Part shown: one piece after another, positions 14,581 to 20,346 of the stretch
Numbering within the stretch: the stretch's first letter is position 1
Layout of the letters: the number at the start of each line of letters is the position of its first letter
DNA from: a virus
Taxonomy: Duplodnaviria; Caudoviricetes
Strand: one strand, 5' to 3'
Length of the DNA: 33,256 nt
IMG/VR virus record: IMGVR_UViG_3300030095_003260
Span: 1-33,256 of that record
The notes under the pieces: generated by a model
The model's database searches: none
Told to the model about the DNA's origin: nothing
Seen by the model: only the letters and a program-made list of their open reading frames with translations
Made by a program: the position numbers and the translations under genes

Positions 14581-15063
14581 TTATGCCACTCGTACGCTAT
14601 CTGGTATAAGTTTAGCGTAATCATTTAGTATATCGTTCGATGTACAACGGTCAACGTACAATTGTAAACCTTCTAGCCAATCCTCTTGGTCGCCGTCACT
14701 AGATACTGAAATGCTGTCGGTGATCTGCGTAATTGCAATCAACATAGCTACAACGTATTTGTCATATGGTTTTCGTGCTGTCTTACAAAACTCAAACGCT
14801 CCCTTTGAGAACTCTTCGTCGCTCTCGTAGTCGTCCTTCGGTCGTTGCTTTCGAGTTAAATAAAAGGTTTCATGACTGTCATCACCTCTACCATTAAATA
14901 AAATAGAGTCGTAGGTAATGGATAAGTTTTGTGAGTCGGTCGGTTCGTTATCTAGTATAACACCGTGATTATCTTTTAGTATTGTTTTCGCTACCTGACG
15001 AACGTTATCCCATTCGTCTTCGGTTAGGTCTCTAGTCTGTCGCCAGTAATGAGTATATCCCAT
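14581..15063 (-). CDS. Conserved phage early protein of unknown function
   Basis: 160 aa; MGYTHYW, HETF, FCKTARKPYD, SSDG motifs; own promoter and SD. Confidence 0.8.
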   Translation of the reverse strand: MGYTHYWRQTRDLTEDEWDNVRQVAKTILKDNHGVILDNEPTDSQNLSITYDSILFNGRGDDSHETFYLTRKQRPKDDYESDEEFSKGAFEFCKTARKPYDKYVVAMLIAITQITDSISVSSDGDQEDWLEGLQLYVDRCTSNDILNDYAKLIPDSVRVA

Positions 15064-15095
15064 TGTTCTTCCTTTCGTTGGTTAGTTAAAACAAC

Positions 15096-15124
15096 AGTAT
15101 AGCATATTGCTATACTATTGTCAA
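15096..15124 (-). promoter_or_regulatory. sigma70 promoter with operator
   Basis: TTGACA-ATAGTATAGCAATATGC(17)-TATACT. Confidence 0.88.
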
Positions 15125-15128
15125 GTGT

Positions 15129-15359
15129 TTATTTTTGGTAACCTCGTTTTTGTTTTACTGCATAAATCCAATCATTGACAGCCTGACAAAGTTTCCATTC
15201 AGCTTCACACCTTTTTTTATTTTCTTTCAAATGTGGATCACAATCAGTTACAGAATTAAAACTAATATGTGACAATTCATCAGTAATAATCGTTTCTCTA
15301 TCCGCTATGCCTGTACTAATCATATCTAACATTTTTCTAGTTAATACTACTCTACTCAT
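15129..15359 (-). CDS. Hypothetical early protein
   Basis: 76 aa; GAGGT SD; own promoter. Confidence 0.75.
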   Translation of the reverse strand: MSRVVLTRKMLDMISTGIADRETIITDELSHISFNSVTDCDPHLKENKKRCEAEWKLCQAVNDWIYAVKQKRGYQK

Positions 15360-15907: not shown

Positions 15908-16264
15908 TGTGGATAAGTTTCGTTAGCTAGTGAACGAGCGAGGCGAAGCCGAGCGAGTTGTGGCGAAGCCACAAGCGACAAGCGACAAGCGAGGGCGAAG
16001 CCCGAGCTTCGTTGGATAAGGAACAAGCTCATAATACCCCGCCCTCTTCCACCCTTATACCCTATCATACTTTGCGAACTTTGTCAAGCATTTTCTAGCA
16101 TATAAATGTGGATAAGTTTCGTTATCTGCTGGACGTTGGTCTACGGAAATTAGTCGCTTGTCGCTGAAAGCGACAAGCGACTGAGGGTCTTCACTATCTG
16201 CTGAAAGCCTTCGGCTAACGGACTATGATCGTCGAGGGTGGGTCGAGGTTCACTAGCTAGTGAA
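15908..16264 (+). repeat. Cluster C: DnaA boxes, G.A hairpins, ACAAGCG repeats, 16-bp palindromes
   Basis: TGTGGATAA at 15908 and 16107; hairpins 15933-15959, 15958-15974, 15987-16009, 16152-16182. Confidence 0.8.
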
Positions 16265-16542
16265 CTATGAAAAAGTTTTGGCGGTGAGAGGTCGACGGTC
16301 GAAATCATAATAAATTTCAACCCGTGATTTACCTTGTGAAAAGCAATTTGGTGAGGTGAAAAAAATACAGTTTTGTTATCTCTTGTTATTTTTAATTCTA
16401 CTGTAAAAAAATGACCTCCCGCTACACTGCCTATCAAGTCGGGCATACCTCTACTGATAGAATTTTCTAATCTATTCCAACGAATTTTAGGTGTGTTGGT
16501 TTTCACCATCTGCCATAATTTAGTTTCTGTTTTGGCTTTCAT
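16150..16542 (-). CDS. PD-(D/E)xK nuclease, VRR-NUC / resolvase-like
   Basis: E..LW, RLEN, GMPDL, VELK, SPHQIAFH motif series. Confidence 0.8.
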   Translation of the reverse strand: MKAKTETKLWQMVKTNTPKIRWNRLENSISRGMPDLIGSVAGGHFFTVELKITRDNKTVFFSPHQIAFHKVNHGLKFIMISTVDLSPPKLFHSSLASEPRPTLDDHSPLAEGFQQIVKTLSRLSLSATSD

Positions 16543-16544
16543 TT

Positions 16545-16932
16545 TTCACGATAACAACTTTCGCTGTGGCGATTGTACTCTTATGCCTCTTGCATTCACC
16601 GAGACTAGGTGGCAGGTGGCGACCCTGTCGCTTTCTAAAAGTACAATCGGCATAGCGATTGTTTAGTGGCGATAACTTGGTACGCAAATGTTTGAGTTAT
16701 CATTAAGAGTATTGAACTAGTATTCACCACTACTCACCACTTGTTTACGCCTTTCATTGTCTACTGGTCTCCTTATTTTAAGTGTCTTACGCGACACTAC
16801 TCGAGGGCGGTTTTATCCCTTTTCACAGTAGGTCGAGAGAGCATGCTGAGCGGAAAGCTATTCATGTATAACCGCCTTCTGTACATTCGCATTCGATTAC
16901 TCTCTCTATTAGTCATTATGTACTTAACCAAT
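16545..16932 (-). ncRNA. Candidate large structured ncRNA (~390 nt)
   Basis: No long minus-strand ORF; own consensus promoter; about 10 helices, G-U wobbles mostly favouring the minus strand, GAAA tetraloop, pseudoknot. Confidence 0.65.
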
Positions 16933-16938
16933 ATTTAT

Positions 16939-16967
16939 ATTATAGCACAATGCTACTTACTTGTCAA
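16939..16967 (-). promoter_or_regulatory. Consensus sigma70 promoter with operator, driving the ncRNA candidate
   Basis: TTGACA-AGTAAGTAGCATTGTGC(17)-TATAAT. Confidence 0.9.
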
Positions 16968-17151
16968 CATTTAAATTAATAAATAATTTCTCAAATATCG
17001 GTTGTCCTTGTTCTTCAGTATACTCGGGTTCTTTATATTGTCGGTGTTCTCTATTAGTCCAACGAAGCCATTTAGCAAAATTCCAATCGTAGCTTTGAGT
17101 TTCGTCGTACTCAAAAACAAGGTCTTGTCCGCTATCTACTGTATCAGTCAT
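16957..17151 (-). CDS. Hypothetical protein
   Basis: 64 aa; GGAGG SD; stop/start coupling. Confidence 0.7.
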   Translation of the reverse strand: MTDTVDSGQDLVFEYDETQSYDWNFAKWLRWTNREHRQYKEPEYTEEQGQPIFEKLFINLNVDK

Positions 17152-19465: not shown

Positions 19466-19957
19466 ATGGGCGTACCAAGCAGACTTACAGAAAAACAAAT
19501 TATATTCATACAAGAACTTGTTTACAATGAAGGTGAAATTACGGCGACAGAGGCTGCAATTAAAGCAGGCTATCCCGAAGCTAGTGCTAGATCTAAAGCC
19601 TCAATGTTGCAAAACCCTAAGTATTACCCGTTGGTTGCTGAACGTATCAAACAGGAACGCCAAGAACTACAAAAGAAATATCAGATCACGGCTGACAAAC
19701 ATTTTAAAAAATTACAAGAGATACGAGACCGTGCTTTAGAGAACGGTTCTTATTCTGCCGCCGTCAACGCAGAAGTAGCAAGAGGCAAGGCAGGTGGTTT
19801 ATACATTGACCAAAAGATTATTAAACACGGTAAGTTGGATCAATTGACTGACCAAGAAGTAGATGAAAAAATCGCTGACTTGATGCGTGAAATGAAGATT
19901 ATTGACGTACAAGCAGAAGAGATACCAATACCAAAAGACAAAAAGAAAATTAATTAA
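19466..19957 (+). CDS. terS: Terminase small subunit
   Basis: LTEKQ..F...ATEAAIKAGY HTH N-terminus; AAVNAEVARGKAGGLY; AGGAGG SD. Confidence 0.85.
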   Translation: MGVPSRLTEKQIIFIQELVYNEGEITATEAAIKAGYPEASARSKASMLQNPKYYPLVAERIKQERQELQKKYQITADKHFKKLQEIRDRALENGSYSAAVNAEVARGKAGGLYIDQKIIKHGKLDQLTDQEVDEKIADLMREMKIIDVQAEEIPIPKDKKKIN

Positions 19958-20346
19958 GGTTTCTTAATATGTTTTTTCAAATAATCTAAAAACCAGTCGT
20001 TGTCTCTAAACACACCCATCAAATAATTTGTGATTTGATTAACCACTATTTCTTCGTTATCATCTTCTTTCAAGGCACCGTTGGCTTGGTTCAAGCCACT
20101 ACCATACACGCAGGCATGCAACACTTCATGCAATAAAGTATTAGCTTTTTCTTGGCCACCTAGTGAGTTTTGAATCTGTATCACACCTTCTCTAGATTTG
20201 TACTGACCAAAACAATCTGTCAATTCATCTAACTTAAAATCAGGAGCTATCCATTCAATATCAATATCTCGATACCCGACTTTAACTCCTGTAGGCTCGC
20301 CTTTTTCAGGTTCTACCACAGTTGGTTTTTTCTTTTTATTTATCAT
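19954..20346 (-). CDS. HExxH zinc metallopeptidase-like protein
   Basis: G.Y....I.I......NTLLHEVLHA...EE pattern. Confidence 0.7.
   Translation of the reverse strand: MINKKKKPTVVEPEKGEPTGVKVGYRDIDIEWIAPDFKLDELTDCFGQYKSREGVIQIQNSLGGQEKANTLLHEVLHACVYGSGLNQANGALKEDDNEEIVVNQITNYLMGVFRDNDWFLDYLKKHIKKP

Follow-up and report, generated by a model that had tools for sequence, protein, structure and literature searches.

A probable cassette array of exchangeable structured RNA modules in ocean phages

We analyzed a stretch of phage DNA of 33,256 nt (the window), on the minus strand of which an earlier note had proposed a single novel, pseudoknotted noncoding RNA of ~390 nt (16545-16932) with its own promoter. 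Judging from sequence comparisons, this region is very probably a row of four separately folding RNA modules, A1+B1, M2, M3, and M4, and such modules are mixed and swapped between related ocean phages like cassettes. A structured noncoding RNA region with its own promoter is retained from the earlier proposal, but the one 390-nt unit is not, as three of the four modules occur separately. We are dealing with a real and apparently undescribed system, an exchangeable array of structured RNA modules.

Predicted RNA modules behind a consensus promoter

The window is a 55%-complete virus record in which an ORF scan revealed genes for terminase, portal, capsid, GroES, primase, helicase, and a family A polymerase. 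The polymerase is 53-54% identical to those of the pelagiphages HTVC023P and HTVC027P, and we classify the window, from its sequence, as an HTVC023P-type marine podovirus. The RNA region sits in an early region rich in small ORFs and with several near-consensus sigma-70 promoters, and the consensus promoter proposed for the RNA was confirmed, matching TTGACA-17-TG.TATAAT at 12 of 12 positions (Table 1); by comparison, ATT lies 4-6 nt after the -10 box in other promoter-led arrays. Near-consensus sigma-70 promoters were noted at seven minus-strand positions (22747, 18549, 16967, 15419, 15124, 14509, and 14168), five with a similar spacer and most with small ORFs downstream, giving the appearance of a PeSL-like shuffling region. 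A 64-aa ORF (16957-17151, minus strand) lies just upstream of the array promoter and has homologs, 37-47% identical, in array-bearing records of two phage families. We also observed GC-rich imperfect repeats of the CGCTTGT and GCTTCGC type (16200-15930, 13900-13780, and 19450-19400), to which repeats in HTVC027P (L198:17349-17700) are related; they carry DNA palindromes, lie between terminase and early genes, and perhaps are genome-end or packaging signals.

No terminator-like site was found within 16545-16932, including between modules. An extended -10 box precedes the downstream nuclease/resolvase-like gene, with identical box and spacing in L011-L013, and the box is also found in L016; by its sequence, it likely is a leaderless promoter of the nuclease gene and the 3´ limit of the array.

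All of the sequence strings quoted in the earlier note were found where it had placed them, and its expectation of novelty was borne out by the lack of any Rfam 15 match in the window (at E ≤ 10, only mir-3910 and AniS appeared, both far below the gathering threshold). The view that the region holds no tRNA or tmRNA agrees with ARAGORN, which returned 0 genes. The minus-strand fold was better than that of shuffled sequences (z -2.8; 1 of 100 shuffles as good) and the plus-strand fold gave z -4.1, and thus the strand is not fixed by folding energy alone. The collection of homologs, which had been put forward as a check, went against a single RNA: whole-RNA searches yielded only an identical copy or nothing, with no full-length homolog in INPHARED (blastn), in 89 loci (nhmmer), or in 26 whole records, and three of the four modules were found apart, with other neighbors.

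Pairing probabilities, computed on the whole RNA with a model without pseudoknots, agreed with several of the proposed helices: GAGAGAGU/GCUCUCUC (0.99), CUACUG/CAGUAG (0.85), and a 14-bp stem (the last pair at 0.54, the other 13 at 0.86-1.0). GAUAACU/AGUUAUC (0.5) completes the four helices that are well or moderately supported. GUGGUGA/UCGCUAU (0.0) and UAGUGGUGA/UCGCCACUA (0.02) were not recovered; UCGC pairs with GCGA instead (0.85-0.98), a pairing kept in seven of seven homologs. A proposed terminal ACAGC/GUUGU hairpin was also lost (0.01) and overlaps the extended -10 box conserved before the nuclease gene. For the GGCGGUU/AACCGCC pseudoknot envisaged between B1 and M2, the 7-bp complement is present, but the pseudoknot itself is unsupported, given that B1 occurs without M2. 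Perfect stems of at least 7 bp number 7, compared with 3.0 in dinucleotide shuffles, part of GGCGG is paired internally in the predicted B1 fold, and the pseudoknot is without covariation support because M2 has no homolog. The UAAGGAG sequence and the short ORF MKGVNKW likewise are present, with an 11-nt spacer, but the ribosome-binding site (RBS) and ORF are not kept together in relatives, where the ORF loses its RBS or stop, and we judged the ORF not to be a gene. On this ground and the ARAGORN result, a tmRNA was rejected. A permuted RNase P RNA, the hallmark of which is a P4 pseudoknot that links conserved regions I and V within a single molecule, was set aside given the lack of an Rfam match and the separability of the two halves, and resemblances to riboswitches, hammerheads, and attC sites were dropped.

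Table 1. Predicted features of the array and associated genes in the window
Feature	Position	Strand	Remarks
Sigma-70 promoter TTGACA-17-TG.TATAAT	16939..16967	minus	12/12 match; transcript predicted to begin near 16932 with 5´ AUU
Scaffold start AATATT and A1 hairpin	16908..16935	minus	8 bp, 16932-16925 with 16915-16908
Module B1	16835..16906	minus	scaffold stem GAGAGAGU/GCUCUCUC around a 56-nt payload
Module M2	16761..16831	minus	multiloop closed by CUACUG/CAGUAG; fold z -2.0
Purine-rich linker variant	16741..16763	minus	follows B-type modules; holds most of the MKGVNKW ORF
Module M3	16665..16741	minus	predicted three-way junction in A position; fold z -2.6
Module M4	16561..16661	minus	outer helix 16658-16655/16564-16561 and 14-bp stem
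M4 inner parts		minus	two 4-bp hairpins with 7-nt loops; pseudoknot 16605-16601 with 16589-16585
Extended -10 box TG-T-TATCGT	16548..16556	minus	5 nt before nuclease ATG
Nuclease/resolvase-like gene	16150..16542	minus	downstream of array
HExxH protein	19954..20346	minus	weak IrrE/PprI-like fold; co-occurs with arrays

A1+B1 (about 16935-16835) is the window's unit of the scaffold grammar described below. In contig X1 record 3, a variant of A1 lies behind the start sequence of an array from another family, and B1 was found with foreign flanks in contigs of runs X1 and X2, being 100% identical in X2; a pattern scan for B1 returned the identical copy and one 19-nt chance match only. M2 is flanked by short GAC direct repeats and carries AACCGCC and the RBS-like site; no homolog was detected, its pattern scan giving the identical copy and 8 unrelated matches, and in X2 record 6, B1 and the linker adjoin without it. 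The linker comes directly after B1 in X2, and in X5 it comes after another module, one ending in CTCTC. M3 was found between foreign flanks in record 2 of X1 and record 8 of X5, and M4 in 7 of the 26 records searched (84-100% identical). Overall, A1+B1, M3, and M4 recur at 84-100% identity in other records, with foreign neighbors each time. Three copies of the sequence TCGCCAC, spaced exactly 50 nt apart, are spread over M3 and M4 (16672, 16622, and 16572, minus strand).

The structure of M4 was derived from an alignment of 7 sequences in which 238 of 238 cells are paired. Two-sided changes were observed at 3 of its 34 pairs, namely C-G to U-A in one hairpin and two in the 5-bp pseudoknot; one A family, a predicted three-way junction, has 5 of 16 pairs changed on both sides (5 sequences). 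These sets of 5 and 7 related sequences constitute support, not proof. As read from the alignment, a pseudoknot with compensatory changes is predicted inside M4, unlike the one proposed between B1 and M2. The closing stems of 40 B modules have 27 G-U and 0 A-C pairs on the transcribed strand, a count biased by the parser, which demanded 6 bp with G-U allowed. We also noted a NUCGCHA loop on an AGG/CCU-type stem in M4 (16627-16613) and in another payload family (L015, L150, and L153), as well as a T-loop-like 7-nt hairpin loop, UGCGAUU, in a B payload family (L092, L142, L157, L164, and L171).

Scaffold grammar and module exchange

The repeat grammar reads ATATT, hairpin A, ATA, GAG-payload-CTC, GYTAA, with one to six units per array and payloads of 9-111 nt. 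One to four units lie upstream of the closest nuclease homologs (L011-L015), and L093 has six in tandem. From a parser output of 45 B and 35 A sequences, from which 5 B and 2 A clusters were dropped by eye as false positives, we obtained 40 distinct B (29 clusters) and 33 distinct A (22 clusters) sequences, some clusters merging by eye; about 8 A modules are minimal hairpins. Family members, judged by eye, made up 5 of 12, 7 of 7, 12 of 46, and 17 of 17 pattern-scan matches. The 7-of-7 scan used a payload pattern, and two of the seven sit in a different slot; the chance background of the scaffold scans (34 of 46 and 7 of 12 matches being non-family) was set aside by eye. In each of the 17 metagenome B-stem matches, several of them near-duplicates, the stem is preceded by ATATT or TAATT and by an A segment that pairs with itself over 2-8 bp, neither of which the pattern required. 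The strict scaffold pattern had 0 matches in GTDB genomes.

Arrays were observed upstream of nuclease-gene homologs in L011-L015, L132, and L161. More generally, arrays precede different genes, or follow a stop codon and face a convergent gene, and every array read either is directed away from a promoter or carries on from the gene upstream. The scaffold is found in three phage families: the HTVC023P type, the HMO-2011 type, whose array records are closest to HTVC033P, and a 33-39 kb podovirus group, near-complete records of which are without an HTVC023P-type polymerase. This last group is not closely related to any record searched: the best matches of its capsid protein are at most 48% identical, and the top 12 do not include HTVC010P.

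None of four cultured pelagiphages has the strict scaffold pattern, so that a host can be named only tentatively. A payload slot common to L103/L104 and HTVC033P suggests, at the level of sequence, a SAR11 host; a nuclease search in genomes returned one bin-labeled contig in which no array was seen, giving no host assignment. In HTVC033P (L199:2069-2290), L103, and L104, a promoter and a hairpin with a U run are followed by this GGGGG/CCCC slot, the payload of which varies between close phages; that of HTVC033P has a UAGCUA hairpin like that of an A family. Unannotated intergenic regions of HTVC027P (L198:17670-18219, minus strand) and HTVC023P (L197:11319-11866 and 14887-15305) contain several hairpins by eye, two beside sigma-70-like sites, and possibly are more module arrays. 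Among unrelated phages, L100:1557-2130 has a twister-like match, tRNAs, and an HDV-like match in one cluster, and in L091:1423-1560 a promoter-like site and a tRNA flank a GAGAGAG/CTCTCTC hairpin.

Exchange was examined in four RNA-library runs, of 24 listed, by comparison with 16400-17100; the contigs have depths of 2.6-4.1, carry no strand or ends, and may be DNA. Seven of 8 contig pieces cover modules at 95% identity or more, with foreign flanks that start at or near module edges. In X1, the A1+B1 unit lies behind the start sequence of arrays from the 33-39 kb phage group, and M3 closes with its first GUGG helix. In X2, B1 leads through the linker to a different A hairpin, skipping M2, while in X5 a different B module is followed by the linker, M3, and other sequence. 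M4 is present in X1 and X2 and, in its 7 of 26 records, lies inside a second array type with CCAAG linkers. Near-identical phages L120 and L146 show whole-module differences at two loci, and the difference between L174 and L175 is a single module flanked by CCAAG repeats. Furthermore, the payload beside the nuclease gene in L013 and a payload in L103 and L104 share 96% identity across 50 nt, and the slot of the latter is also found in cultured HTVC033P, filled by a different payload.

The second array type consists of CCAAG-linked hairpin modules, including M4, behind its own promoter (L120:2140-2660, L146:2140-2600, and around 1400-1800 in L174, L175, and L177). In record G008, the overlapping ends (L200 start and L201 end) carry different cassettes after the same unit, which may reflect strain variation or a chimeric assembly.

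Proposed mechanism and alternatives

We propose that the host polymerase would transcribe the cassette array early as one precursor, that host RNase E would cut this precursor at AU|AUU linkers to give small RNAs, and that each released module would act in trans as a decoy, binding and distracting a host protein or signal; module exchange likely runs by recombination at short repeats. We give this explanation as a whole about an even chance of being correct. For its parts, we lean slightly toward processing by RNase E and place a decoy or inhibitor role of the modules just short of even. Internal linkers behind most B modules read AAU-AUU or GAU-AUU and would fit the RNase E motif RN|WUU mapped in Salmonella (PMC5222698), a short motif that is common in AU-rich sequence. 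Cutting a linker at AU|AUU would yield the same AUU 5´ end as the predicted transcription start. The window's own linkers after B1 lack AAU-AUU, and, with its inner linkers being different, the window precursor may be cut elsewhere or left whole.

The position of arrays before different genes, or facing a convergent gene, argues for action in trans, and an early region with many folds that are unrelated to one another, conserved, and quickly exchanged would be in keeping with selection against a variety of host factors. The about 8 A modules that are minimal hairpins hardly would be aptamers and count against the decoy explanation. A more tentative extension, which we hold to be possible but not the likelier case, is that abundant ocean phages of the three families share a recombining library of natural RNA aptamers on a standard processing scaffold, each RNA neutralizing a different host defense or regulatory factor, as an all-RNA counterpart of anti-defense gene islands.

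Other readings account for parts of these data. The modules could be cis-acting leaders or stabilizers (tandem sensors, nuclease blocks, or processing signals) that tune early genes, as several of the arrays have a promoter on one side and a gene on the other (L014, L120, and L162) and promoters recur in the early region of the window in the manner of PeSL cassettes. We consider this rather unlikely, since payloads are position-independent, with an identical payload before unrelated genes, other arrays end against a convergent gene, and the nuclease gene is preceded by a conserved extended -10 box of its own; the array also is without a terminator-like site. It is unlikelier still that some or all payloads are catalytic, as new self-cleaving or ligating ribozymes that the scaffold only presents: the compact pseudoknotted fold of M4 and the presence of ribozymes in RNA clusters of other phages (the twister and HDV-like matches in L100) would be in keeping with catalysis, but no Rfam ribozyme match was found in array modules, the hammerhead core is present in 0 of 73 modules, and dozens of unrelated folds exceed the needs of a processing role. 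Short direct repeats flanking inserted modules, and the inverted ends of B modules, recall mobile hairpin elements, whether selfish or neutral, that would act as DNA (MITE- or attC-like). This origin is improbable in light of the G-U bias toward the transcribed strand, the covarying inner junctions and pseudoknot, the direction of all arrays read, leading away from a promoter or extending a gene upstream of them, and the finding of 0 integrases or transposases among the 50 window ORFs scanned (in a 55%-complete record).

Equally improbable, in our estimation, is that a phage protein, for example the HExxH protein that co-occurs with arrays, uses the modules as guides or cofactors. Strong matches to this protein are present in 14 of 26 selected records, including five of five near-complete ones and all three families, compared with 0 in 21 other nuclease relatives (1 weak match) and 0 in 4 cultured phages; the 21 comparison records, however, are fragments, G006 has the HExxH gene but no array was found there, and a shared host would produce the same co-occurrence. 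The protein model has a pLDDT of 89 and resembles PprI/IrrE weakly: the best fold match is ssDNA-bound PprI (E 0.015), but none reaches E ≤ 0.001, and the payloads have no common protein-binding box. We regard the HExxH protein as a candidate partner or a marker of a shared host, the latter explaining the pattern equally well. Least probable of all is the one integral, pseudoknotted ~390-nt RNA, in which the B1 loop would pair with M2 and all domains would form one machine. The single promoter, the lack of a terminator-like site between modules, and the 7-bp GGCGGUU/AACCGCC complement fit such an RNA, and an uncut precursor with module-to-module contacts would be compatible with it. Against it, no full-length homolog was found, the 7-bp complement is expected by chance, and B1 was seen without M2, M3 without the UCGCUAU neighbor, and M4 alone in 7 records; by sequence, this separate occurrence of modules largely refutes the integral reading.

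Comparison with known systems

We found no Rfam match on array modules in 12 and 19 loci, and no class core motif or model match of known self-cleaving ribozymes in the modules. No description of such arrays was found in the literature set searched, outside of which most subscription papers lie, and module motifs had no match in the supplements of PMC10690425 covered by the search; single modules may be listed in its other files.

CRISPR-type arrays have one near-identical repeat and unstructured spacers of uniform length, and type III antitoxin arrays have near-identical pseudoknot repeats beside a ToxN-type gene. A CRISPR array or RNA anti-CRISPR was rejected given the two alternating short repeats and the structured payloads of 9-111 nt common to several phages, and a type III antitoxin array given that the units are not mutual copies and that no ToxN-type gene was named among the window ORFs (PHROGs). 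GOLLD, ROOL, and OLE are large multi-domain phage or bacterial noncoding RNAs with a conserved domain order; the marine arrays resemble them as multi-domain noncoding RNA of unknown function with its own promoter, but have independent, reshuffled domains and no Rfam match. Phage RNA decoys (RNA anti-CRISPRs, antitoxin-mimic repeats, and viral sgRNAs) titrate a host defense protein. Like the modules, they are small phage RNAs, sometimes arrayed, and by analogy we propose a similar mode of action here; whereas such decoys mimic one known host RNA, the marine arrays present dozens of unrelated folds on one scaffold.

The shuffling of small protein genes in the early regions of phages is already known. 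Folded RNAs in a standard cassette format common to unrelated phage families would represent a further, new class of elements for host takeover or counter-defense. The arrays would supply dozens of compact natural RNA folds in modules of 30-110 nt that can be directly made and probed, and the homologous slot in cultured HTVC033P (host HTCC1062) would offer an infection model.

The PeSL cassettes of T4-like phages are promoter-terminators that shuffle ORFs in hypervariable early regions (PMC2839356). They have in common with the marine arrays short repeats, modular shuffling by recombination, and strong sigma-70-like promoters; in the latter, the cargo is structured noncoding RNA and the repeats are neither promoters nor terminators. 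TIGR arrays of the stem-loop type (PMC12045711) similarly are phage-borne tandem units with two variable elements and alternating constant parts, and are processed at linkers into unit RNAs, as is proposed here. As spacers they have unstructured guides of 8-12 nt, each set between box C/D motifs, with a Nop-domain gene adjacent (PMC12045711). C/D boxes (RTGATGA plus CTGA, covering snoRNA-type boxes only) were found in 0 of 73 modules, and the Nop domain PF01798 in neither the window's own record (0 of 1) nor near-complete relatives (0 of 5), a Pfam search that a remote Tas could escape. In contrast to TIGR guides, the variable parts of the marine arrays are folded domains of 9-111 nt that are common to several phages.
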